From an uncultured Chloroflexia bacterium (GTDB lineage: Bacteria; Chloroflexota; Limnocylindria; QHBO01), in the NCBI GenBank assembly GCA_963822845.1, contig CAWGIY010000004.1, forward strand, positions 218,850 through 282,849: DNA of 64,000 nucleotides, in the 5' to 3' direction. Positions 42,853-60,275 of this stretch are shown in pieces; within the stretch, counting starts at the first letter, position 1, and every line of letters begins with the position of its first letter. The translations under genes and the position numbers were made by a program. The notes beneath the pieces were generated by a model. That model ran no database searches, was not told where the DNA came from, and was given only the letters and a program-made list of their open reading frames with translations.

Positions 42853-42981
42853 GCGTTCATTGTCCTGCAGCGCGTGAGCCGGGTCAACCGAGGGTACGGG
42901 GTGGGTTCCCTTTGCGGCGGCAGGAAAGCATGGCTACGATCGGCTGGCGTGCCCCGCAGGATGACCCAGGAGGACGATCCC

Positions 42982-44598
42982 ATGGTATTCCTTCGGCGCA
43001 GACCATCGAGAGCTGCTGTCATCGGTGCGATATTCGCGATGCTGATCGGCGCCATGCCGGTCGCGGCAGCCAAACCGACGCCGGGGTGCGACAACCGCAC
43101 GAACAACACGTACGCCAAGCTTCTCGAATGCGTGACCCTGGAGGGCGTCCGGGAGCACCAGAATGCCTTCCAGCAGATCGCCAACGCGAACGGCGGCACG
43201 CGCCATGCCGGCGAGAGCGGATACGCCGCGAGCGCTCAATACGTCTACGACCGTCTGCAGCAGGCGGGCTGGACGGTCTCGCTCCACGAATTCCCGTTTA
43301 TCTACACCCCACCGCCTCGGCTCCAACAGCTGACGCCCACCGCCGCGACGTACGAGACCGGGGCATTCACCGGGTCGGGCTTCGGTGAGGTCTCTGCCGC
43401 CGTGACGCCGATCGACGTGAACTTCGTGGCCCCCGCGACCACAACCAGCGGTTGCCAGGGCGACTTCACCGAGGCGGCGGTCGGTGCGCCCATCGTGCCC
43501 GATCCAGACGGTCCCGACGACTTCGCCGACTTCACCGGCGGCATCGCCCTCGTCCAGCGAGGCGCGTGCAGCTTCGCCCTGAAGGCCACCAACGCCATGT
43601 CGGCGGGGGCCGCGGCGCTCATCATCTTCAACCAGGGCAGCGACCCGACACGTATGGACCTGATCATCGGCACCCTGGCGCCGGTCGCCGCCACCATTCC
43701 GGTCGTGGGCGCTTCGTATGCCAATGGGCAGGCACTCGCGCAGGCCGGATCGACGGCACTCGTCGACGTCGATCCCCCCGAGAGCCGGCCGCAGGTCAAC
43801 GTGATCGCCGAACGGCGCGGGAAGAACAACGCCAACGTTGTCATGGCGGGAGCCCACCTCGACTCGGTCCAGCGTGGCCCCGGGATCCAGGACAACGGAA
43901 GCGGATCCGCGGCGCTCCTGGAAGTTGCCGAGCAGATCGGCAAGCTGAAGCCGGAGAACACCCTGCGCTTCGCGTGGTGGGGCGCCGAAGAGTCCGGTCT
44001 CATCGGTTCGACGCAGTATGTCAACGGGCTGAGCCAGACCGAGCAGGATCGGATCGCGCTCTACCTGAACTTCGACATGATCGGTTCGCCCAACTACATG
44101 TTCATGGTGTACGACGGCGACGAATCCGGGTTCCCGGCTCCTCCGGGGGTGCCGATCCCTGCCGGATCGATCCAGATCGAGGACCTGTTCGAGTCGTTCT
44201 TCACGTTGCGCGGTGAGCCGTATGACGACGCCCAGTTCAGCGGGCGGAGCGACTACCAGGCGTTCATCAACAACGACATACCCGCCGGTGGGCTCTTCAC
44301 CGGCGCGGAAGTGCCGAAGACCGCCGAGCAGGCCGCGATCTGGGGCGGCACAGTCGGTGCGCAGTACGACCCGTGCTACCACCTGGCCTGCGACACGTTC
44401 GCGAACGTGTCCCTGCATGCGCTCGACGTGAACAGCGACGCGGTCGCGTTCGCGGTCCTCACGTACGCGTACTCCACCCAATCGGTGAACGGCGTGCCCG
44501 GAAAGACGGTCCCGGGTGGCCTCGTGATCCCGCCACCCGCCGGTCCGGAGGGAACGGTCGGCAGCGGAAGCGGCGCCGAGCACGCGCCGCTCGACTGA
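42982..44598 (+). CDS. M28-family aminopeptidase with PA domain, secreted
   Basis: Start MVFLRRRPSRAAVIGAIFAML, with RBS aggagg upstream, inside ORF 42874..44598. M28 ligand blocks HLDSV, DNGSGSAALLE, GAEESGLIGS, NFDMIGS, CYHLACD. Confidence 0.85.
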   Translation: MVFLRRRPSRAAVIGAIFAMLIGAMPVAAAKPTPGCDNRTNNTYAKLLECVTLEGVREHQNAFQQIANANGGTRHAGESGYAASAQYVYDRLQQAGWTVSLHEFPFIYTPPPRLQQLTPTAATYETGAFTGSGFGEVSAAVTPIDVNFVAPATTTSGCQGDFTEAAVGAPIVPDPDGPDDFADFTGGIALVQRGACSFALKATNAMSAGAAALIIFNQGSDPTRMDLIIGTLAPVAATIPVVGASYANGQALAQAGSTALVDVDPPESRPQVNVIAERRGKNNANVVMAGAHLDSVQRGPGIQDNGSGSAALLEVAEQIGKLKPENTLRFAWWGAEESGLIGSTQYVNGLSQTEQDRIALYLNFDMIGSPNYMFMVYDGDESGFPAPPGVPIPAGSIQIEDLFESFFTLRGEPYDDAQFSGRSDYQAFINNDIPAGGLFTGAEVPKTAEQAAIWGGTVGAQYDPCYHLACDTFANVSLHALDVNSDAVAFAVLTYAYSTQSVNGVPGKTVPGGLVIPPPAGPEGTVGSGSGAEHAPLD

Positions 44599-44673: not shown

Positions 44674-45840
44674 CTATTCCAGCTCGAGCAGCTCGCGGCG
44701 ACGCGGCTGCCGCTCGACGAACGCCCTGGCGTCCTCGACCGGGATCGCGCCGTTGACGACCGCGAGCTGGACGACACGGTCCTCGACGAGGTAGGCCACC
44801 CAGAACCGATCGCCCTCACCGCGCTTGATGGTCTCCTCCCAGGTCGGCGCCCAGCCGACGACATCGATGAGGTCGCCGGCCACCTCGCTGAAGACCCACG
44901 GCGCGCGGGGCGGTGCCAACGGCTTGCCGAGCATCGATAGGGCGGCGCGCTCACCGCCCTCGCGCGCGGCGTGCCAGTGCTCGATCCGGCGCCCATCGAT
45001 CCGCGCGGCATCACCGGCAGCCCAGACCGATGGATGGCTCGTGTGGAGGTCCGCATCGGTCTCGATGCCGTCGTCAACGGCCAGGCCGGCTGCCTCGGCC
45101 AGCTCCGTCCGCGGGGTGACCCCGATGCCGGCGATGCTGAACGCGTGGACATGGCGCTCATCGCCGACCCGGGCGGCCCCGTCGGTGAGCCGTGTCACTG
45201 CCGCGCCGGATTGGACCTCTACGCCCGCCGACTCCAGGCGCCCTCGCGCCCATCGATCGAGCTCGTCTCCCAGCGAACCGGCCCAAAGGCGCTCGGCCAT
45301 CTCGAGGATCGTCGGCCTAAGTCCGAGTGTGGCGAGGCCCGACGCGACTTCGACGCCGATGAAGCCGCCGCCGATGACCGTCACCCGAGCACCCGCGCCC
45401 GCCTCGGTGGCCTTCGCGCGGAGCCGGCGCGCATCGGTCAGAGTTCGAAGGAGCAGCGCGTGCTCGCCACCGTCGACTGGAAGCTCGCGCGGCCGGGCGC
45501 CGGTGGCCAGGAGGCAGCGCTCGAAGTTGATGATGGTGCCCTCGTCGAGGGTCGCCTCGCCCGCATCGGGGTCGAGCGCGGTGACGCGGTGCGCGGGCAG
45601 CAGCTCGACGCTCCGGCGCTCGTACCAGCGCGCAGGCTCGGCCAGGACAAGCTCGTCGGGCAGGTCGTCCCTGAGCAGCTCCTTGCTCAGCGGCGGCCGG
45701 TTGTATGGCAGCGCAGCCTCATCGCCGACGAGGAGGATCCGCCCGTCGAACCCCTCGCGGCGTAACGTTCGCGCGCACCGAACCGATGCGACGCCACCGC
45801 CGATGAGGAGCACATCGGTCGTCTCGGTCCTCGCTGCCAC
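44674..45840 (-). CDS. FAD/NAD(P)-dependent oxidoreductase (ferredoxin/rubredoxin reductase family)
   Basis: Two Rossmann GxGxxG/A sites (LLIGGGVASV; VTVIGGGFIGVE) and a C-terminal dimerisation domain. Confidence 0.8.
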   Translation of the reverse strand: MAARTETTDVLLIGGGVASVRCARTLRREGFDGRILLVGDEAALPYNRPPLSKELLRDDLPDELVLAEPARWYERRSVELLPAHRVTALDPDAGEATLDEGTIINFERCLLATGARPRELPVDGGEHALLLRTLTDARRLRAKATEAGAGARVTVIGGGFIGVEVASGLATLGLRPTILEMAERLWAGSLGDELDRWARGRLESAGVEVQSGAAVTRLTDGAARVGDERHVHAFSIAGIGVTPRTELAEAAGLAVDDGIETDADLHTSHPSVWAAGDAARIDGRRIEHWHAAREGGERAALSMLGKPLAPPRAPWVFSEVAGDLIDVVGWAPTWEETIKRGEGDRFWVAYLVEDRVVQLAVVNGAIPVEDARAFVERQPRRRELLELE

Positions 45841-45870: not shown

Positions 45871-47820
45871 TCAGGAGCAGCCTGGCTGGCCCTCGAGCCA
45901 CTCGACGGCAGCGTCGATCGCAGGGTCGTCACCATCGGGGCCGGCGATGACGGCGACGGTCTGGTCCGGCGCGAGGTTGGACTCGTAGGTCGCGCCATCA
46001 CGATCCACGACCGTCGAGACCGGGAGCCGCAGCCGCGCCCCGTCGACCATCACGAGCGACATCTGCCCATGCGGGCTGCCGGCGGTGACGCCGCCGATGA
46101 TGCGCGTGGCCGGGCGCCCGCGGAAGCCAACGACCAGCTGCTCACCGGCGGCGGCGGTCACGTTCGAGGTCAGCACGACCACCGGGGCATCGCGGTTGGC
46201 AGGCAGGTGTGCCGCCTCGCTCGCCAGCATGGCGTCGAATTCCTCTTCCTGCCGCTCGTCATCCGCCGTCGCGGCGGCCACGGCCGGCGAGTCGAGGATC
46301 TCGGCGGTGCGCTCATCGCCGTCGACGAGCACCGTCCCATCGTCGTTCACCTCGACCCACCAGTTGCCCAGGGCGGAGTCGAACGTGATGACGCGACCCT
46401 CGCCGAGCAGGCCGGCGACGACCCCAAAGAGCGGCGGGTACGCGCCGAAGGCCGTCTCCCGGACGTCGACGATCCAGCCGCATGCGGGCGCCGTCGACTC
46501 GACCGACTCCATCGCCGTCCGCCCGTCCAACAGATATTGACGGATGTCGTCGGGCCCACCGGCGTCCAACGCGGGCAGGTCGAGATAGCCAACCTCGCCG
46601 AACCGATCCCCGCGCGGCCCGGTCACCGACCCCGGGCTCTCTCCGCCGGCGGGCACGTCCTCGGGCCGGATGAAGACGGTTCCGGAGAAGTCGAAGGTCG
46701 CGATGGCGTCCTGGATGCGCCGCCAGGCCTCACCGGCCGTCGGATCCTCGGGCAAGCCGTCGAGTGCCGCCGCCCGCGCGGCAGTCCAGTCGATGGCCTC
46801 CGTGTTCCAGTGGTACGCCTCCATGGCTTCGAGCGCCGTCTCGATGTAGGCGACGTAGTCGACGTCGGTGGACGAACCTGGCTGCCCCAGTGGGAAGTCC
46901 GGCGGCAGCCCGAGGGAGGCAGGGTCAGGCGGCTGATCGGTGTCCGGCGGCTCGATCGGCGCGGGATCGGTCATTGGCGCGAACTCGGTGACGTGCGAGG
47001 TGATGAACGGCGCATCCTCCACCGTCGGGGTCACGCCGACCAGATCTGTCGACCACGTCCGCAGTCCACCATCGGGCGCGATGCCCCACTCCGCGGTCGC
47101 CATGCCGTCGCGATAGGGAGCGGTCAGGACCCACGTCGCACCACCGTCCGCACCGCGCGTCACGGTCACGTCACCATCGCCGATGGCGAAGGCATCCGCG
47201 GCAGCGACTTCGCCGTCGAGCATCCCGGTCTGGAGCGTCACGACCGGAGGGGCATCGTCGCGCGACCCCGCGACCCAGGCCTCGGCATCGGTCACATACG
47301 ACTCATCGCCGACCAGGACGTGGATGGACGTGGTGACGTTCTCTCCACGAGCCGGAGGCTGGCCGTCCGGATCCAGCCACCAGCCGGTCTCGGCGACATC
47401 GACGTCCGTTCGCATGATCACGATCTGGTCGCCGCTTGGCCTCCAGCTGAACCATGTTGCCGAGCTCAGCTCGTCGAGGACTGACGACGTGGATACGCCC
47501 TCGACGCCCGGGGCATCACGAAGTGCATCGACCGCGGAATCGAGCGCGGCGCGCAGCTCCTCGACGCTGGCCGGCGATGGCTGCGCCTCGGTCGAGTCGG
47601 TCGGGGCCGGACCCACGTTGGGTTCCTGGCCGAGGATCAGCGCGACGATGGCGACCACGGCGACCACACCGATTGCGACCGCGGCCGGGAGGAACGCGGC
47701 GAACGGCGAGCGGCTCAGCGGTGCGGTGTCGACCGTGGCCATGATCCGCGGGACGAGGTCGGTCGGTGGCTGCGCCTGTCCGCGGGACCGCAGGAACTCG
47801 ATGACTCGCTCGTCGCTCAT
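45871..47820 (-). CDS. membrane anti-sigma factor with large extracytoplasmic S41-peptidase-like (CtpA/Prc-fold) domain
   Basis: ATGA-coupled to the upstream ECF sigma. Short cytoplasmic N-terminus and one TM helix (FLPAAVAIGVVAVVAIVALILG). The C-terminal region aligns by eye to S41 blocks: GWIVDVRETAFG (~LILDLRNNPGG), PVVVLTSNVTAAAGEQLV (~PLVVLVNRGSASASEIFA), RIIGGVTAGSPHGQ (~TLVGETTFGKGLVQ). The expected Ser and Lys appear replaced by Thr and Ser. Confidence 0.65.
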   Translation of the reverse strand: MSDERVIEFLRSRGQAQPPTDLVPRIMATVDTAPLSRSPFAAFLPAAVAIGVVAVVAIVALILGQEPNVGPAPTDSTEAQPSPASVEELRAALDSAVDALRDAPGVEGVSTSSVLDELSSATWFSWRPSGDQIVIMRTDVDVAETGWWLDPDGQPPARGENVTTSIHVLVGDESYVTDAEAWVAGSRDDAPPVVTLQTGMLDGEVAAADAFAIGDGDVTVTRGADGGATWVLTAPYRDGMATAEWGIAPDGGLRTWSTDLVGVTPTVEDAPFITSHVTEFAPMTDPAPIEPPDTDQPPDPASLGLPPDFPLGQPGSSTDVDYVAYIETALEAMEAYHWNTEAIDWTAARAAALDGLPEDPTAGEAWRRIQDAIATFDFSGTVFIRPEDVPAGGESPGSVTGPRGDRFGEVGYLDLPALDAGGPDDIRQYLLDGRTAMESVESTAPACGWIVDVRETAFGAYPPLFGVVAGLLGEGRVITFDSALGNWWVEVNDDGTVLVDGDERTAEILDSPAVAAATADDERQEEEFDAMLASEAAHLPANRDAPVVVLTSNVTAAAGEQLVVGFRGRPATRIIGGVTAGSPHGQMSLVMVDGARLRLPVSTVVDRDGATYESNLAPDQTVAVIAGPDGDDPAIDAAVEWLEGQPGCS

Positions 47821-48365
47821 GTCATCACCTCCGTCTCGACGTCGCGCCGCGGATCATTCAGCTCACGTCGCAGGACCGCCAGCCCGGCGCTCAGCCGCGA
47901 CTTCGCCGTCCCGACCCGGATGCCGAGCATGTCGGCGGCCTCGGAGATCGAGAGGCCGATCGAGTAGTGCAGGGCGAGCACGGCTCGCTGGTCGACGGTC
48001 AGGCTCTCGAACGCCGGCTCGAGGATCGCCCGCGCTTCGGCATCGGCGCGAAAGTCGGGCCGCGGGTCCGTGATGACCACCTCATCGCCGAGATCCAGCG
48101 CAGCGCGAGGACGCCGGCCGCGACTCCGCAGCCAGTTCCGCGATCGATTGACGCAGATCCGCCGCAGCCATGGGTCGAAGGCGCCGGCGTCCCGAAGCCG
48201 CGGGAGCTGCTGCCACGCCGAGACGAACGTCTCCTGGGTCACGTCGGCGGCATCGGCCACGCCGACGATCGCCGCGGCGAGCCGAAACGTCTCGGTCGCG
48301 TGCTTCCCGACGAGCATCTCGAATGCCTCCCGATCGCGGGCCTTGGCACGGCTGACGAGGTCCAG
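47817..48365 (-). CDS. ECF-family RNA polymerase sigma factor; probable CTG start at 48365
   Basis: The ORF from ATG 48317 lacks region 2.1. In-frame upstream codons encode LDLVSRAKARDREAFE. RBS AAGGAGG lies 8 nt before CTG 48365, and an in-frame TGA is at 48387. Region 4 HTH LSISEAADMLGIRVGTAKSRL. Confidence 0.75.
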   Translation of the reverse strand: MDLVSRAKARDREAFEMLVGKHATETFRLAAAIVGVADAADVTQETFVSAWQQLPRLRDAGAFDPWLRRICVNRSRNWLRSRGRRPRAALDLGDEVVITDPRPDFRADAEARAILEPAFESLTVDQRAVLALHYSIGLSISEAADMLGIRVGTAKSRLSAGLAVLRRELNDPRRDVETEVMT

Positions 48366-48461
48366 CGCTGTTCCCTCCTTGGGCCTTCACACACTAGACA
48401 CCGGCCCGCGTCAGAGTGTTCGGCGGCTCGTGCGGATCGGCTTCGATAGACTCCGCACCGC

Positions 48462-49325
48462 ATGACCCTGCCTACCGACCTGCACATGAGAGAAGCGGCC
48501 ATCAGCGACATGCCCGCCATCGCCGCGATGCGCGCGGCGACCGGTTGGGCGGTGCACGAGTGGGCGCTGCGCGCCGTGATCGCTCAGCCCCATGCCCGCT
48601 GTGTCGTCGTGACCGATCCCGAAGGACGGCTCGCCGGGGTCGGCTCCGGCATCGCGTACGCGCCGCTCGGGTTCGTCGGCAACATGATCGTCGCCGACCA
48701 GCACCGGCGCCGAGGAGTCGGCACTGCCATCCTCGACGACGTCGCCGGCTGGCTGGCGCAGGCTGGCTGCAGCCGCCTCGAGCTCAACGCGACCGATGAA
48801 GGGGAGCACCTGTACGCCACCCGTGGGTTCGCCAGTCGCGGCCGCAGCGCGGTCGCCCGGGTGCCACGCTCGACACCGCTCGGAGGCGACCCGGCCGTGC
48901 GGACTCGTCCCGCAACGCCCGCCGATCTCGATCGCCTCGCCGAATACGACCGCCCGCGCTTCGGTGGCGACCGGCGGCCGGTCCTCGCATTGCTCCTCGA
49001 CGACCCGTCGTGTCGGACCGCGGTCGCGGAGCGCGAGCTCGTGCTGGTCGGGTTCGCGGTCGCCCGTCTCGACGAACCCCGGCTAGGACCGATGGTCGCC
49101 GACACGCCGGGGGTCGCGGCCTCAATGCTGCGCTGGGCCTTCGCCGCCTCCCCCGCCACCGACGAGATGCGGCTCAACCTGCCGCCGGACAACGACGTCG
49201 GTGCCGCGTGGCTGCGCGAGCTGGGCGTGCCCGCCGAACCGTGGGAGGGCCGCATGGCGCGCGGACCGGACGTTCCGCGCCGCGATGACACGATCTACCA
49301 GATGACGGTGGGCCCCCTGGGTTGA
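48462..49325 (+). CDS. two-domain GNAT-family acetyltransferase
   Basis: 287 aa. The N-terminal half carries an acetyl-CoA motif (QHRRRGVGTAILD). Confidence 0.65.
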   Translation: MTLPTDLHMREAAISDMPAIAAMRAATGWAVHEWALRAVIAQPHARCVVVTDPEGRLAGVGSGIAYAPLGFVGNMIVADQHRRRGVGTAILDDVAGWLAQAGCSRLELNATDEGEHLYATRGFASRGRSAVARVPRSTPLGGDPAVRTRPATPADLDRLAEYDRPRFGGDRRPVLALLLDDPSCRTAVAERELVLVGFAVARLDEPRLGPMVADTPGVAASMLRWAFAASPATDEMRLNLPPDNDVGAAWLRELGVPAEPWEGRMARGPDVPRRDDTIYQMTVGPLG

Positions 49326-50248
49326 CGACGACGCACGGCCTCGTCCTCAGCGCGCGCTCGGGCTTCTACACGATCGCCACCGACGAGGGAGACCTCGTCG
49401 AGTCGCATCTGCGTGGCCGCGTGAAGCGCGAGCGGCAGTCCTCGGACCTCGCCGTCATCGGCGACAGGGTGGAGCTCGAGCGCCTGCCCGACGGGACCGG
49501 CGCGATCGTCGGCGTCGAGCCACGCGGGCGACGCTTCAGCCGCCGGCAGCCCGGCCCGCGCGGCACGTGGCGCGAGGACGTGATGGTCGCCAACCCGGAC
49601 CTCGTGGCGATCGTCTTCGCCTGCGACCGGCCCCCGCCGAATCCCCGGCTGATCGACCGCTTCCTCGTCGTCGCGGAGTACAACGAGGTGCCGCCGGTCC
49701 TCGTCGCCAACAAGGTCGACCTGGTCGGGACCGATGCGGCGAGCGACCGCTTCGGCGGTTACGAGCGCATCGGCTACGACGTGATCTACACCAGCGCCAG
49801 GGGCAAGATCGGCCTCGAGGAGTTCCGCGCACGGCTTGCCGGGCGGCTGTCGATCGTCACGGGCCCCTCAGGCGTCGGCAAGTCGACGCTGCTCAACGCG
49901 CTGCAGCCGGGACTGCGAATCGAGACCGGCGAGGTCAGCGAGATCATGGAAGGGCGCGGGAAGCACACGACCCGCCACGCCGAGCTGCACCCGCTCGACG
50001 GACCCGAGGGTGGCTACGTCGCCGACACGCCCGGGATCAGGGAGCTCGGCCTCTTCCAGATCCCACAGAGCGAGCTCGCATGGTGCTTCCCCGAGTTTCG
50101 CGAGCACCTCGGGCAGTGCGCCTTCAACGACTGCACCCACCTGCACGAGCCGCGCTGCGGCCTCCGGGCGGCCGTCGAGGCCGGCGCTATCTCGGAGGAC
50201 CGATACGACTCGTACCGACGCCTGGCGACCGGTGACCAGCCTTCCTAG
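49322..50248 (+). CDS. rsgA: ribosome small-subunit-dependent GTPase A
   Basis: Circularly permuted GTPase: NKVDL (G4), GPSGVGKSTL (G1). C-terminal zinc site CxHxxEPxC (CAFNDCTHLHEPRC). Confidence 0.9.
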   Translation: MTTTHGLVLSARSGFYTIATDEGDLVESHLRGRVKRERQSSDLAVIGDRVELERLPDGTGAIVGVEPRGRRFSRRQPGPRGTWREDVMVANPDLVAIVFACDRPPPNPRLIDRFLVVAEYNEVPPVLVANKVDLVGTDAASDRFGGYERIGYDVIYTSARGKIGLEEFRARLAGRLSIVTGPSGVGKSTLLNALQPGLRIETGEVSEIMEGRGKHTTRHAELHPLDGPEGGYVADTPGIRELGLFQIPQSELAWCFPEFREHLGQCAFNDCTHLHEPRCGLRAAVEAGAISEDRYDSYRRLATGDQPS

Positions 50249-51618
50249 TCGCTGATCAGGCCGAGCGCCACCGCGAGCGTCGCGTCGGCGAAGAGGGCCG
50301 CGCGCTCGACATCCACGTTGTCGATGTCGTCGCAGGCGAGGTGATAGCACGCGTCGGCCGGCTCGCCGCCCGCGCCGGACGCAGATGGCGCGGCGGCCCC
50401 GCCCGTCTCGGTGGCGCCCGCGAACAGGCCACCGGTCGGAACGCCGGCTTCGTTGAAGGAGCCGTGGTCGCTTCCCCCGCCGAGGTCGGCAGGCTCGACG
50501 TGCAGGCCACGGTCGGTGAACCACTCGACGTACACCTGCGTGATCTCGGCGGATCCCTCGGCCACGGCGATCTCGTCGTAGACGAGGTTCGCGCCGTTCG
50601 GAGAGCCGGTCATGTCGAGGTTGACGTAGGCGACGAGCTCGTCTTCGAGATCCTCGACATACGCGCGCGAGCCGACCAGGCCCAGCTCCTCCCCGCCCCA
50701 CAGGCCGATGCGAACGGCGGTCCCATCCGGCACGCCGGCCTCGGCCACGCCGCGCGCGATCTCGAGCACCGAGGCCACCCCACTGCCGTTGTCGTTGATG
50801 CCTGGACCCTCGAGCACCGAGTCCAGGTGCGCCCCGACCATGACCACGCTCGGGCCGTCGCCGAGCTGGGCAATGACGTTGCGCAGCACAGCGCGCTCGC
50901 GTTCGGTCTCGACGCGCAGCTGCACCGGCTCGTCGCCCGTGCCCTCGAGCGCGCGGATGGCGTCATCGGTGACCGACACGACGGGGATCTCGATGCCGGC
51001 CGGGTCGATGAGCGTCGGGCGGAAGATCTCGCCTGGCCCGCGGCCGGGGTACCCGACGAGCAGGGCCGCGGCGCCGGCCTCGACCGCGTTGATGGCCTGC
51101 TGGCGCCGGAAGCAGCCGCCCTCCACGGTCAGCACGATGCTCCCCGGCTCCACGCCTTCGAAGTCGCCGGCGGCGCAGCCGCTGCCGTCGAGGATCTCGA
51201 CCCGGGCCGTCACCTCGCCGCTGGCCGAGTAGATGAGCGCCCGCAGCTCGTCCGGCCCGGCGAACGTCGAGGAGCCGACCACGAGCTCGGTCCCGGGAAG
51301 CTCGGCGAAGCCGGTGAACTCGACGTCCGGCGTGTCGACGTCGAAGCCGAGCTCGATGAGCTCATCGACCGCCCAGTCGACCGACGCCTCGTAGCCGCTC
51401 GTCCCGGCGAAGCGGTTGCCGCCGTGCTCGTCGGCGATGGCCTGGAGGGCGGCGAGATGGTCGGCGATCCGCTCGCCGTCGGCGGCAAACGCAGGGAGCG
51501 GCGCGTCAGTTGTGCCGGGGGAGGGCGCTGGCGAGGAGGTCGGGATCGGGCCTTCTGCCCCACAGGCGCCAACGAGCGCGACGAGCACGGCGGCCAGGAG
51601 CCAGCGACATCGGTCCAT
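50245..51618 (-). CDS. M28-family peptidase lipoprotein with PA domain
   Basis: Lipobox LVGACGA. Blocks HLDSV, DNGSGVASVLE, GGEELGLVGS, NLDMTGS, CYHLACD. Paralogous to 42982..44598. Confidence 0.85.
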   Translation of the reverse strand: MDRCRWLLAAVLVALVGACGAEGPIPTSSPAPSPGTTDAPLPAFAADGERIADHLAALQAIADEHGGNRFAGTSGYEASVDWAVDELIELGFDVDTPDVEFTGFAELPGTELVVGSSTFAGPDELRALIYSASGEVTARVEILDGSGCAAGDFEGVEPGSIVLTVEGGCFRRQQAINAVEAGAAALLVGYPGRGPGEIFRPTLIDPAGIEIPVVSVTDDAIRALEGTGDEPVQLRVETERERAVLRNVIAQLGDGPSVVMVGAHLDSVLEGPGINDNGSGVASVLEIARGVAEAGVPDGTAVRIGLWGGEELGLVGSRAYVEDLEDELVAYVNLDMTGSPNGANLVYDEIAVAEGSAEITQVYVEWFTDRGLHVEPADLGGGSDHGSFNEAGVPTGGLFAGATETGGAAAPSASGAGGEPADACYHLACDDIDNVDVERAALFADATLAVALGLISD

Positions 51619-54616: not shown

Positions 54617-55228
54617 CTAGCCGCCGCCACCCGGGCCGCTGTTGTCACCGCCGTCGCCCCCACCTCCGCCGGGGCCGCTGTTGTCGCCGCCGCCGCCGCC
54701 AGGGCCGCTGTTGTCCGACTCCGAGGGCTCCGGCGTCTCGAACTCGTCATCGTCGTCGGTGGCGGACGGCGCCGGGGTCGCCGGGCGAGGGCTGTCGCTT
54801 GGCGAGACGGATGGCGACGGGCTCGGTGAGGGTGACGGCCTCGGAGACAGGGTCGGTGTCGGGCTCGGGGTCGGGCTCGGGCTGACGATGACCGACGGAC
54901 TCGGCGTCGTGCCCGGCGAGATGGGTCCGCGGATGAGATCGGCAATATCGCCCACGACCAGCGCCGCGACCACGGCCGCCGCCACCACGGCCGCCGCCGC
55001 GAACCCGCGAGCCGGGGTGGCCCATGGCGCCATCGAGCCGGTGAAGCGGGCCCACCATCCGATGGCCGGGTCTGGCGCGGCATCGACCGCCGCATGGATG
55101 CGTGCCGCGAGGTCGACCGGCGGGCCGGAGCGCTGGCCGGAGGCGAATGCCTGGAGCTGCTCGGCGATGCCGTCCAGCACCGCGTCCCGGCGGTCGAGCT
55201 CGTCCGGCCCGTACGGGTGGCGGATCAT
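54617..55228 (-). CDS. membrane anti-sigma factor with Pro/Ser linker and C-terminal (D)NSGPGGGG repeats
   Basis: ATGA-coupled to the sigma gene at 55225. One TM helix (AAAVVAAAVVAALVV). Extracytoplasmic SPSPTPSPTP linker, ending DNSGPGGGGGDNSGPGGGGGDGGDNSGPGGGG*. Confidence 0.6.
   Translation of the reverse strand: MIRHPYGPDELDRRDAVLDGIAEQLQAFASGQRSGPPVDLAARIHAAVDAAPDPAIGWWARFTGSMAPWATPARGFAAAAVVAAAVVAALVVGDIADLIRGPISPGTTPSPSVIVSPSPTPSPTPTLSPRPSPSPSPSPSVSPSDSPRPATPAPSATDDDDEFETPEPSESDNSGPGGGGGDNSGPGGGGGDGGDNSGPGGGG
54630..54715 (-). repeat. about 2.5 copies of a 33-39-nt tandem repeat encoding NSGPGGG units
   Basis: gggccgctgttgtc(a/g)ccgcc… units are visible in the sequence. Confidence 0.6.
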
Positions 55229-55809
55229 CGCTCGATCTCCGGTGCGAGCGCCGGCCGCAGGCGATCGAGACCGCGACGCAGGTGGGTCTTCACGGTGTTG
55301 ATCGGACGGCCGGTCGTCTCGGCGATCTCGGCGAGCGACAGCTCCCCGAAGAAGCGCAACGCGACCGTCTCGCGGTAGGGATCGGGCAGCGCCGCCACCG
55401 CGTCACGGATCTCGCCTCGATGCTCGGCGGTCACGACGACCCGGGTCGGGTCGGCGCTCGTGTCGGCCAGCATCGGCTCTCCGACCGCATCAAGATCGGT
55501 CGTCGGACGACGCTGAGCGAGCCGCCGGAAGGCCTGGCGGGTCGCGATCCGCATCAGCCAGCCACGGACCGATCCCTCGCCACGGAACCCGCCAATCGAG
55601 CGGAAGGCCGCCAGGAACGCCTCCTGTGCGACGTCCTCCGCGTCATGCGGCCGGCCGAGAATGCGGAGGCACGCGCGATAGATCATCGGGGTCTCCTGGT
55701 CGACCAGCACACCGAAGGCATGCCGGTCGCCCGCCCGCAGGGCAGCGACGAGGGCGTGGTCATCCACGCCCCCATCCTGCCACGCGGCGCTCGCCATCCC
55801 CTCGGGCAA
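55225..55809 (-). CDS. ECF-family RNA polymerase sigma factor
   Basis: Region 2 (DAEDVAQEAFLAAFRSIGGF). Region 4 HTH (LSLAEIAETTGRPINTVKTHLRRG). Confidence 0.85.
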   Translation of the reverse strand: MPEGMASAAWQDGGVDDHALVAALRAGDRHAFGVLVDQETPMIYRACLRILGRPHDAEDVAQEAFLAAFRSIGGFRGEGSVRGWLMRIATRQAFRRLAQRRPTTDLDAVGEPMLADTSADPTRVVVTAEHRGEIRDAVAALPDPYRETVALRFFGELSLAEIAETTGRPINTVKTHLRRGLDRLRPALAPEIER

Positions 55810-55817
55810 CGCGGGCC

Positions 55818-56369
55818 TCAGTGACCGCCGCCCGGCCCGGAGTTGTCGTCGTCATCGCCGTCACCGTTGCCGGGGCCGGAGTTGTCGTCGTCATCGCCGT
55901 CACCGTTGCCGGGGCCGGAGTTGTCGTCGTCATCGTCACCGTTGCCCGGTCCGGAGTTGTCGTCGTCCCCGTCACCGTTGCCGGGACCCGAATTGCTGTT
56001 GTCCTCGTCGTCGTCCGTCGGGCTCGGCTCGGCGGTCGCGCTGGCGCTGGCGCTCGGCGCGGCGGTCGCGCTGGTGCTGGCGTTCGGCTCGGCGGTCGCG
56101 CTGGTGCTCGGCTCTGCGCTCGCGCTGGCGCTCGACTCGGCGCTCGCAGCCGCCTCGGGGCTCGCCGACGGCGACGGCTCGGCGGAGGTGCTCGGCTCCG
56201 GTGTCAAGGTGGCCGACAGCACACTGCCGCCGGGAGTCGCCTCAGGCGACACAGATGCGCTGGCCGTGCCATCGGCGACGCCTCCGTTGGCGAGAACGAC
56301 GCCGGCCATGATCAGCAGCCCGCCCACGGCCAGGGCGGCGCCGCGAAATGAAGTCCTGTAGTTCACCAT
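55818..56369 (-). CDS. secreted low-complexity protein ending in five DNSGPGNG-Asp-rich repeats
   Basis: Signal peptide MVNYRTSFRGAALAVGGLLIMAGVVLA. An Ala/Ser/Glu/Pro-rich middle region. The C-terminus is DDDEDNSNSGPGNGDGDDDNSGPGNGDDDDDNSGPGNG…NSGPGGGH*. Confidence 0.55.
   Translation of the reverse strand: MVNYRTSFRGAALAVGGLLIMAGVVLANGGVADGTASASVSPEATPGGSVLSATLTPEPSTSAEPSPSASPEAAASAESSASASAEPSTSATAEPNASTSATAAPSASASATAEPSPTDDDEDNSNSGPGNGDGDDDNSGPGNGDDDDDNSGPGNGDGDDDDNSGPGNGDGDDDDNSGPGGGH
55837..55990 (-). repeat. four copies of a 36-39-nt tandem repeat (ccggagttgtcgtcgtcatcgccgtcaccgttgccgggg)
   Basis: Direct tandem copies are visible at 55837, 55876, 55915 and 55951. Confidence 0.7.
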
Positions 56370-58644: not shown

Positions 58645-59628
58645 GTGTTCGAGCTGCGGCGTGACCCGGTCACCGGCTGGTGGTCGGCGATCGTGGCCGA
58701 TCGGGCATTCCAGCGTGATGCGTTCGTCGTCGAGGCAAATCCGGTCGAGGGCACGCACTGCCGGCACTGCGACGAGGGTGGCGAGAACGATCCGCCACAC
58801 CTCGTCCGGCGCGTCGCGCTCCGCTCCCAGGCCTTCCACCGCATCGACTCGACCAAGGCAAGCGCGGCCCAGCTCAGCCTGAGCGAGGTCGAGCGGGCGA
58901 CGGGGGCGTGGGAGATCCTGGTCGGTCCACGGGAACACCACGAGCGATTGGCCGATGCCAGCCCGCAGCTGGCGGGGTCGCTGCTCCGCGCCGCCCGCGA
59001 CGCGATGCGTGACCTCGGAGCGCAGCCGCGGCCGAACGACGCCGAGGGGCGTCCGGAACCGCTCTATGTCCAGGTCGTCCAGAGCTACGGCATGCAGGCC
59101 GGGTCGCGCAGCTCGCACCTCAACCTCGAGCTCTACGCCATCCCGCAGGTCCCGCACTGGGTGGCCGAGGAGATCGGCGGCGGCGCGCGGCAGATGATCA
59201 AGAACCGCCGCTGCGTGTGGTGCGCGCTGGCCGAGGCCGAGGAGGAGCGCGGCGAGCGACTGATCCTGGCCGATCACCACGCCGTCGTCTTCTCGCCGGC
59301 CGCCAGCCGCTCGCCGTTCGAGATGATGGTCGTGCCCCGCCAGCACGGGTCGGACTTCACCGTCCTCGACGACGACGCCATTACCGATGCCGCCGCCACG
59401 CTCCAACGAACGCTCCACGCGCTGGACGCGCTCGGCGACCCACCCTATAACCTCTTCCTGCATACCGCACCCTCCGGCGAACGGCTCGACCAGACCTTCC
59501 ACTGGCACTGGGAGGTCCACCCGCGGCTGCGGGTGATCGCCGGGCTCGAGCGCGCCACCGCACTGGCGGTGAACCCCGCGACGCCCGAGTACGCTGCCGA
59601 GATTCTGCGCGAGCAGGTGCATCGGTAA
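58645..59628 (+). CDS. galactose-1-phosphate uridylyltransferase-like HIT-superfamily protein (paralog 2)
   Basis: GTG start. FELRRDPVTGWW, CRHCDEGGE (zinc/CxxC region), SHLNLE and FHWHWEVHP His motifs. Confidence 0.6.
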   Translation: MFELRRDPVTGWWSAIVADRAFQRDAFVVEANPVEGTHCRHCDEGGENDPPHLVRRVALRSQAFHRIDSTKASAAQLSLSEVERATGAWEILVGPREHHERLADASPQLAGSLLRAARDAMRDLGAQPRPNDAEGRPEPLYVQVVQSYGMQAGSRSSHLNLELYAIPQVPHWVAEEIGGGARQMIKNRRCVWCALAEAEEERGERLILADHHAVVFSPAASRSPFEMMVVPRQHGSDFTVLDDDAITDAAATLQRTLHALDALGDPPYNLFLHTAPSGERLDQTFHWHWEVHPRLRVIAGLERATALAVNPATPEYAAEILREQVHR

Positions 59629-59738
59629 CAGATGGGCGGCGGGGAGCGTCAGAGACCAGATTGCGGGGGCACGCGAATGCGGAGGACGAGGCGTTGTCGA
59701 TGGCCGTGCCCGACGGGCTTCCGTGGGGTGCCACCGAA

Positions 59739-60271
59739 ATGACCCGCCAGCCGTACGACGCCCGCGAGGCGGAGTTCGCGGCCATCTTCGAGGAGTTCTC
59801 GAGCCCGATCTACAACTACGTGCTGCGCATGGTCAACGACCACGACCGCGCCGCCGACATCACCCAGGACACGTTCATCAAGGCCTACCGCAAGCTCGAC
59901 ACCCTCAGCGAGACGACCTCCGTCCGATCGTGGCTCTACCGCATCGCCACGAACACCGCGATCGACGACATGCGTCGCCGTCGCAACGTGACCACCATGA
60001 GCGACGACCAACCCACCTTCGCGAACCGAGCCGACGCCCGCCCGGGCCCCGAGGCCCAGGTCATGGCCGCAACCCTCGACGAGCGGGTGCAGCGGGCGCT
60101 CATGAGCCTGCGCCCGAACCACCGCCAGTGCCTGCTGCTCAGCGACCTCGAGGACATGAGCGCGCAGCAGATCGGTGAGGTGATGGGCATGTCGTACGGC
60201 GCGGTGCGCACGCTCCTGTGCCGCGCCCGCGGTGAGATGCGTCGCGCCCTGGCGGCCGAGGGCTTCGCCCG

Positions 60272-60275
<4 letters not shown>
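59739..60275 (+). CDS. ECF-family RNA polymerase sigma factor
   Basis: The ORF starts at 59661; the likely start is MTRQPYDAREAEFAAIFEEF at 59739. Region 2 DITQDTFIKAYRKL. Region 4 MSAQQIGEVMGMSYGAVRTLL. Confidence 0.85.

Follow-up and report, generated by a model that had tools for sequence, protein, structure and literature searches.

We analyzed a 64,000-nucleotide stretch of the genome of an uncultured Chloroflexia bacterium (contig CAWGIY010000004.1; the window), which has a G+C content of approximately 70%. On its minus strand, a gene for a sigma factor of the extracytoplasmic function (ECF) type is followed, with a 4-nt overlap, by an open reading frame (ORF) for a 649-residue protein, hereafter the query. 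The query is very probably an anti-sigma factor, and its extracytoplasmic part is predicted to combine a LolA/LprG-like domain with a module of the S41 peptidase fold in which both catalytic residues are replaced. Its nearest relatives were recovered from soil and freshwater metagenomes; those that carry a name belong to Candidatus Limnocylindria, a class of Chloroflexota. The features of the gene pair are as follows.

45871..47820, minus strand: whole gene of the putative anti-sigma factor, a 649-residue single-pass membrane protein (ORF, AlphaFold2 model)
47817..48365, minus strand: ECF sigma gene, 182 residues if the start is the CTG at 48365-48363 (Pfam, NCBIfam, start-codon comparison)
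47817..47820, minus strand: ATGA overlap of the anti-sigma start with the sigma stop (TGA), translational coupling (sequence)
47707..47820, minus strand: cytoplasmic N-module, residues 1-38, putative sigma-binding part (recurrence on unrelated ectodomains, sigma linkage)
47629..47706, minus strand: transmembrane helix, residues 39-64, N-in/C-out (hydrophobic stretch PFAAFLPAAVAIGVVAVVAIVALILG, modelled helix)
46951..47580, minus strand: LolA/LprG/LprF-like beta half-barrel, residues 81-290 (AlphaFold2 predicted local distance difference test [pLDDT] above 90; Foldseek)
46864..46950, minus strand: Pro-rich linker, residues 291-319, with the conserved motif GLPPDFPL (family comparison)
46693..46863, minus strand: N-terminal three-helix bundle of the S41 module, residues 320-376, NSR-like (model, fold match)
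46672..46692, minus strand: block DFSGTVF, residues 377-383, aligned to GDGHSxF of active relatives (joint alignment)
45874..46623, minus strand: S41 cap and core, residues 400-649, with an insert at 501-545 and Cys447/Cys648 (Pfam, PDB sequence and fold matches)
46141..46158, minus strand: block TAAAGE, residues 555-560, aligned to TASSAE of NSR (sequence and profile alignments)

The upstream ORF was identified as an ECF (group 4) sigma factor by Pfam (Sigma70_r2, E = 3e-12; Sigma70_r4_2, E = 2e-9) and by NCBIfam TIGR02937 (72 bits against a cutoff of 42.9), with regions sigma-2 and sigma-4 only. A first-pass annotation, made from the sequence alone, had described translational coupling of the two genes through ATGA and had proposed to look for sigma coupling in homologous loci. 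The overlap is indeed present at 47817-47820, and coupling was found at every homologous locus examined, with the same 4-nt overlap in 10 of 10 orthologous loci (L001-L004 and L093-L098). Orthologous loci are syntenic, with GNAT and RsgA genes divergent upstream and Pyr_redox, often SufBD, downstream; because of this synteny, the ten were counted as one conserved arrangement. The anti-sigma topology described in the same annotation was likewise recovered as an Arg-rich N terminus of 38 residues followed by one hydrophobic helix (residues 39-64). Five Arg precede this helix, and an acidic, Pro-rich (Pro/Ser-rich) linker follows it.

The N-module contains short helices at residues 3-13 and 22-31, is rich in Arg, and has conserved residues Y9, L10, R11, R13, P19, and M27. 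When the cytoplasmic segment was searched against 177,635 PDB sequences, the anti-sigma factor RsiW ranked first, with query residues 10-29 aligned to RsiW 51-70 (VRSTSHVEAPADFTANVMAK); the E value of 0.16 is not significant, and the match is a lead only. An exhaustive hidden Markov model search with residues 1-300 revealed that the N-module recurs. Many proteins of 240 to 764 residues matched residues 1-85 only, that is, the N-module and transmembrane helix, and carried unrelated ectodomains (class-D proteins). Where upstream contig DNA was available for N-module genes, an ECF sigma gene lay directly upstream in 17/17, and 16 of these 17 paralogous pairs overlapped by ATGA or GTGA. These loci had been fetched by way of the conserved C-terminal domain of the class-D proteins, and the fetched genes that had this domain without the N-module had no sigma gene nearby. 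It is thus the N-module, and not the ectodomain, that goes with an adjacent sigma gene, as would be expected if the N-module binds sigma. The anti-sigma case rests on this context because no known anti-sigma domain was detected. On that basis, we consider it very probable that the protein is an anti-sigma factor, and we infer from the strict genomic association that the N-module sequesters sigma.

Extracytoplasmic domains and the S41 catalytic columns

The protein was modelled with AlphaFold2 from 36 family sequences (mean pLDDT 82.5). The first-pass annotation had described a periplasmic part of about 550 residues with an S41-like end; the terminal S41 domain stands, but that description overlooked a separate LolA/LprG-like domain at residues 81-290. 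The model of residues 1-300 matched Mycobacterium bovis LprF in Foldseek (4qa8; E = 5e-6 [5.2e-6], probability 1.0), followed by LprG (3mh9/3mha), LolA (4ki3), and, more weakly, Escherichia coli RseB (2p4b; E = 0.02), with target TM-scores of approximately 0.5. Pfam had no match for this domain. It was retained in every ortholog, across all length variants. The LolA/LprG fold usually binds lipids or lipoprotein acyl chains, and the domain is the constant part of the ectodomain and probably its primary sensing domain, presumably for a lipidic envelope molecule.

Homology of the C-terminal module to S41 peptidases, which had been proposed by eye, was supported by both profile search and structural modelling. 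Pfam PF03572 (Peptidase_S41) matched residues 410-621 with 44 bits (E = 2.3e-11; gathering score 24). In PDB searches, the nisin resistance protein NSR (4Y68) came first (E = 5e-8 with the single sequence, 1e-11 with a profile), followed by the putative peptidase 4L8K and IRBP, and CtpA/CtpB appeared only at E above 0.3. Foldseek with the module also placed 4Y68 first (E = 2.2e-16; target TM-score 0.76-0.79; 326 columns over helical bundle and core), with 4L8K, 8VCB, IRBP, and CtpA among the later matches. The three conserved blocks that had been noted do exist, as DVRETAFG (452-459), TAAAGE (555-560), and TAGSPHGQ (579-586). The assignment to a CtpA/Prc-like type was not upheld: TIGR00225 (prc) scored 10.7 bits against a cutoff of 218.6 and NF045589 (CtpB) 10 against 633, and a Pfam scan of the query found no PDZ domain. 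Because of these scores, the missing PDZ domain, and the ranking of PDB and Foldseek matches, we assigned the module to the NSR/IRBP branch and not to CtpA/Prc.

The active site of NSR is a Ser236/His98 dyad, in which the strictly conserved His98 sits where the helical bundle ends; the Ser236Ala mutant and the His98Ala mutant retain about 14% activity each, which the authors ascribed to nisin binding (PMC4698656). The query was aligned with NSR, with its sigma-linked S41 family (36 full-length members, 44-80% identity), and with 47 distant stand-alone relatives (24-34% identity). The stand-alone proteins match only residues ~313-649 and come from Streptomyces, Kitasatospora, Gemmatimonadota, Gammaproteobacteria, Acidimicrobiia, and Chloroflexales. 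At the nucleophile column, the query has TAAAGEQ versus TASSAEM in NSR, which places Ala557 opposite Ser236 and leaves only the T and E in common. The column of the general-base His holds Gly380 in the joint alignment. Across the family this column contains N (21), G (9), S (3), T (2), and A (1), and His in 0/36, while the Ser column contains S (15), A (10), T (7), V (2), R (1), and G (1); T555, G559, and E560 are invariant. Both His and Ser are intact in 38 of the 47 stand-alone relatives, whose motifs read GDGHSxF and T-[AG]-S-[SA]-G-E. The oxyanion-region GG is also degraded in the family, with F458 in the query. With both defining catalytic features absent, the module is best classed as a non-peptidase homolog within the S41 superfamily.

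The first-pass annotation had thus been right in substance that the catalytic dyad is substituted, although it had read the nucleophile as Thr. That column holds Ala557, and Thr555, two residues before it, is a conserved T that active enzymes share (TASSAEM in NSR, TASSGE in stand-alone relatives). It had also read the Lys position as Ser, and Ser582 does occupy the Prc Lys column, but as a sign of a lost dyad this residue is uninformative because active relatives of the NSR/IRBP branch also have no Lys there. Its suggestion of autoproteolytic signalling, in the manner of regulated intramembrane proteolysis, was not supported for the S41 domain: given the base and nucleophile columns, autoproteolysis by this domain is very unlikely.

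Although catalysis appears to be lost, the module is conserved. Divergence was measured against P0001, the closest relative with DNA available (80% identity; synonymous divergence [dS] approximately 0.45, unsaturated). The ratio of nonsynonymous to synonymous divergence (dN/dS) was 0.26 for the S41 module versus 0.24 for the N-terminal half, with 0.15-0.25 for cap/core segments and 0.17 for residues 546-649 (the last 104). Mean pairwise identity in the family was highest in the helical bundle (70%), followed by the core (55-60%) and the LolA-like domain (49%). Cys447 and Cys648 were present in 36/36 family members and in 44-46 of the 47 stand-alone relatives, which fits a structural disulfide of an extracytoplasmic protein. 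The dN/dS values and this conservation indicate that the S41 module is maintained by purifying selection where it is present. The earlier idea of a substrate mimic or sensor is compatible with such selection.

A separate stand-alone subgroup of NSR-like S41 proteins was seen in Chloroflexales/Anaerolineales (L019, L024, L030, L031, L037, and L048). Its members have an insertion behind the His block, at a position like that of a PDZ domain, and carry GDRNA for GDGHS and T-[AV]-Q-A-G-E or TMAAGE for TASSGE. In these proteins catalysis seems to have been lost independently, within the same subfamily.

A variable C-terminal slot

The profile search with the N-terminal half (N-half) returned many proteins of 315-335 residues, up to 77% identical to the query N-half and ending after LPxDFP[LM], and a second class of 490-513 residues. 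Both forms occupy the syntenic slot of the query, as judged from the context of the loci. Short orthologs stop just past the GLPPDFPL linker motif, and because the next gene starts 56-115 bp after their stop, the S41-coding DNA is physically absent from these loci. A split gene, with a separate S41 gene after the short ortholog, was ruled out; in L093 and L094 the gene that starts at this distance is Pyr_redox, and no S41 gene is present. The extension of about 190 residues in the 490-513-residue orthologs was considered as an S41 remnant or a second LolA-like domain, but hhalign probabilities were at most 1.5% for both, and the extension is the uncharacterised domain that the class-D proteins carry (the class-D domain).

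Domain mapping distinguished five states of the slot: a full S41 module, no extension, an in-frame deletion, a duplicated LolA-like domain (P0189), and a class-D domain, the last with the signature …C-x-x-P-S-G-x-Y-x-V-x-L-P-D-G-W-W-T-N…N-K-A-x-L-D-x-I-M. In P0011 and P0220 (L098), which belong to different clades, about 270 S41 residues are deleted in frame, leaving the bundle start and the last nine residues, WLEGQPGCS, with the conserved Cys. The P0220 junction is flanked by two short sequences that resemble each other, ALD and AID-AAVEW, and this suggests a microhomology-mediated deletion. The two deletions are independent.

In a neighbor-joining tree of the shared N-half, S41-bearing forms were scattered, with short or replaced forms beside them at no fewer than 8 places. 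The nearest N-half neighbor of the query is P0011, with its S41 core deleted, and that of P0001 carries a class-D domain in a frameshifted gene. The spread of S41-bearing forms across this tree indicates that the module is ancestral to the ortholog family. The His was probably lost already in the ancestral module, as no member has it, and on the evidence of the tree the module itself is a part that has since been lost or replaced many times. A history of independent losses only has to be qualified, however, by P0010. Compared with the query, P0010 has a dN of 0.15 for the S41 half and 0.51 for the N-half, and this mosaicism indicates recombinational exchange of the module as well as deletion.

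The extracytoplasmic class-D domain is a unit of about 160 residues with no Pfam match. It was seen in L053-L092, in P0094, P0097, P0110, P0112, P0121, and P0127, and in the 490-513-residue orthologs P0209-P0229, with the motifs C-T-N-P..G-Y-T-V.Y-P-D-S-W-Y-T-N…P-A-C-S-W-F…L-N-K-A-V-L-D-R-I-M-A-S-L. Single copies, tandem copies, and copies placed after the same anti-sigma N-module all occur, and the domain is able to replace the S41 module at the locus of the query.

Sigma start codon, promoter-like block, and neighboring genes

Two further features flank the gene pair.

48397..48421, minus strand: ECF-type promoter-like block GAACAC-N13-GGTGTC, about 35 nt 5' of the sigma start (conservation)
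44674..45840, minus strand: FAD-dependent pyridine nucleotide-disulphide oxidoreductase gene, 30 bp past the anti-sigma stop (Pfam Pyr_redox_2, E = 3e-60)

ORF tools place the sigma start at the ATG at 48317, giving 166 residues. A Shine-Dalgarno sequence called strong, AAGGAGGG, lies 6 nt 5' of the CTG at 48365-48363. An in-frame TGA is found 7 codons 5' of this CTG, with no ATG, GTG, or TTG between, and the first such codon after it is 16 conserved codons downstream. Among L001-L005 and L054-L098, the homologous codon was CTG in 16 loci and TTG in 5, and in at least 10 of the CTG loci the stretch from the upstream stop to the CTG contained no canonical start. The sigma gene therefore appears to start at CTG, with gene callers 16 codons too late. 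A weak sigma start combined with a coupled ATG or GTG start of the anti-sigma gene could hold the anti-sigma factor in excess.

The promoter-like block is the core of a 26-nt block, CGAACAC-YT-TGAC-N7-GGTGTC, within a 96-bp gap shared with a divergent GNAT acetyltransferase gene (48462-49325, plus strand). It was kept in the window and in L001-L004, whose amino acid identity is only 46-60%, and it fits an autoregulated ECF-type promoter. A regulon search with GAAC-N15-17-GTGTC across the window gave a single match, 5' of sigma itself; there was no second copy, and no regulon member is named.

The Pyr_redox gene has an equivalent position in L002, L004, and L093-L096 and is possibly co-transcribed with the anti-sigma gene, given the 30-bp gap. 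Two more ORFs of the sigma-70 family were found in the window, at 55228-55851 (minus strand) and 59451-60272 (plus strand), with phmmer E values against the sigma factor of 4e-17 and 2e-9; neither precedes a gene with the N-module. The locus is also flanked by paralogous secreted PA-domain/M28 aminopeptidase-like genes (42874-44598, plus strand; 50245-51618, minus strand), identified as such through the Pfam annotation of their counterparts in L094 and L095. Such genes recur close to the sigma/anti-sigma pair in related genomes.

Interpretation and comparison with known systems

Taken together, these data lead us to lean toward an ECF anti-sigma factor with a constant LolA/LprG-like ectodomain and a non-catalytic, selected, and swappable S41 accessory. 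As a whole, the pair would operate in the manner of a classical ECF sigma/anti-sigma system. The N-module and transmembrane helix would hold the ECF sigma encoded upstream at the membrane, and the LolA/LprG-like domain would act as the constant sensor outside the cell. The S41 module, which looks like an optional sensing add-on and not an enzyme, would bind a peptide, a hydrophobic ligand, or a protein and thereby alter the input or stability of the anti-sigma factor; the position after the LPxDFPL linker would be a swappable slot. IRBP sets the precedent for an S41 fold that binds ligands, and RseB for a protein that protects an anti-sigma factor. Sigma would be released by other proteases, namely, a separate site-1 activity and a site-2 protease, or by a conformational signal, as general knowledge of ECF systems suggests. 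Of these routes, regulated proteolysis is the likely one by analogy.

Several points weigh against this interpretation. Pfam found no match in residues 1-70, even at E values up to 10, and hence no recognizable anti-sigma domain (class I zf-HC2/RskA/RseA_N or similar), and the N-module is shorter than class I anti-sigma domains. All sigma-coupled cases come from one lineage (Limnocylindria-like metagenomes), and the paralogs are not fully independent observations because they are related by descent within it. A ligand- or protein-binding role of the S41 module is no more than plausible. The Ser is kept in 15/36 members, so that some of them might conceivably have residual or unconventional chemistry. 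Finally, close relatives are repeatedly found without the module, so the core function does not require it and its contribution might be small.

The same losses raise the question of whether the module is a relic, once an active fused protease domain and now decaying, being deleted, and without present function. The absence of the dyad in 36/36, the free variation of the Ser column, and the short, deleted, and replaced forms beside S41-bearing sisters at 8 or more places in the tree, including the core-deleted nearest neighbor P0011, would all agree with decay. Nevertheless, the dN/dS of the module is on par with or below that of the rest of the protein at unsaturated dS (0.26; 0.17 for 546-649), about 50 residues are invariant, the helical bundle is the best-conserved segment of the protein, and the 36 full-length members contain no frameshifts or stops at 44-80% identity. 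We therefore regard a relic as unlikely. Highly improbable is an active protease that uses unconventional residues, such as Thr555, or Ser in some members with another base, to cleave the anti-sigma factor itself or another substrate. The fold and the substrate-groove blocks (DxR, T-x-x-x-G-E, T-x-G) are retained, 15 of the 36 members have Ser at the nucleophile column, and autoproteolytic anti-sigma factors of other folds are known, RsgI reportedly being one. However, the query has Ala in the nucleophile column and Gly in the base column, the base His is found in none of the 36, no alternative His or Lys is conserved among the invariant residues, and Thr555 shows the same conservation in active relatives without serving as their nucleophile. 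Even in NSR, either single substitution, Ser236Ala or His98Ala, leaves only about 14% activity (PMC4698656).

A third possibility concerns the whole protein, which could be an envelope scaffold that binds lipids or peptides and is merely co-transcribed with, and regulated by, the ECF sigma. The lack of a Pfam anti-sigma domain, a cytoplasmic part of only 38 residues, and the non-significant similarity to RsiW would be in keeping with a scaffold. The 4-nt start/stop overlap is nevertheless kept in orthologs and paralogs, and sigma linkage tracks the N-module (17/17) and not the ectodomain (0). Short two-helix anti-sigma segments are known, class II CnrY being an example. With these points considered, a scaffold is distinctly unlikely. 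A CnrY-like class of anti-sigma factors is mentioned in PMC7826278.

A more specific role for the S41 module, and one we consider doubtful, is that of a pseudoprotease receptor with a kept substrate tunnel. It would bind a peptide tail, a lipopeptide or lantibiotic-like molecule, or its own LPxDFPL linker, and would gate site-1 access as an RseB-like protector in cis. If this were true, the interchangeable C-terminal modules would serve as alternative "input cartridges", each tuning the one sigma/anti-sigma pair to another envelope signal, and no pseudoprotease sensor would have been described in ECF signalling before this one.

On the preferred reading of an anti-sigma factor with a non-catalytic accessory, the locus adds a bacterial case of an S41 fold kept for a non-catalytic role, for which vertebrate IRBP is the best-known example. 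Pairs of ECF sigma and anti-sigma factors make up one of the major classes of bacterial signalling systems, and the input domains of most anti-sigma factors are uncharacterised. Natural variants of one pair already exist here, so the contribution of the accessory domain is directly testable, and the short, previously unannotated N-module would predict anti-sigma function in this lineage. Unusual anti-sigma ectodomains are common, but this locus offers a neat, testable case in combining an S41 module that is dead yet under selection with a LolA-like domain in the same protein and with turnover of modules in the manner of cassettes. An anti-sigma factor carrying an S41 domain was not found in the searchable literature. 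A broad profile search with the S41 module returned 18 proteins, none with an anti-sigma domain, which is a weak negative because the search was limited by its word index.

Among known proteins, NSR of Streptococcus agalactiae (4Y68; MEROPS S41) resembles the query in its layout of helical bundle, cap, and core, in being membrane-anchored and extracytoplasmic, and in its T-A-x-x-x-E helix and T-x-G block. It differs in that it cleaves nisin with Ser236/His98 (PMC4698656), where the query has Ala557/Gly380 at about 18% identity, and in that the query module follows a LolA-like domain on a chain that begins with a sigma-coupled N-module. The modules of IRBP/RBP3 (7JTI, 1J7X, 9FRX) match in profile and fold, and IRBP is a non-catalytic S41-fold binder of hydrophobic ligands. 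It has Thr in the nucleophile column (RTATAAEE), as have 7 of the 36 family members. Unlike the query, IRBP is a secreted protein of eukaryotes, made up of repeats in tandem and unconnected with transcription; the kinship is at the level of the S41 superfamily only.

The best fold matches for residues 81-290 are the mycobacterial lipoproteins LprG, LprF, and LppX, together with LolA. These have no detectable sequence similarity to the query and are free lipoproteins or carriers, whereas the query domain sits on a sigma-linked membrane protein. RseB is similar in using a LolA-like fold in envelope sensing, matched here at E = 0.02, but in E. coli it is a separate polypeptide that binds RseA, and the LolA/LprG-like domain of the query lies within the anti-sigma factor itself. 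RseA of the E. coli sigma-E system, with DegS and RseP, and the receptor-type RsiV are, like the query, single-pass anti-sigma factors co-transcribed with an ECF sigma. Compared with the class I domain of RseA and RsiW, the N-terminal domain of the query is far shorter and belongs to no Pfam family. S41 enzymes themselves are tied to extracytoplasmic sigma control, Prc in cell-surface signalling and CtpB in the pro-sigma-K pathway. Those enzymes have an active Ser/Lys pair and a PDZ domain and act in trans, whereas the query module is of the NSR type, without PDZ, appears to be catalytically dead, and is fused in cis to the putative anti-sigma factor.

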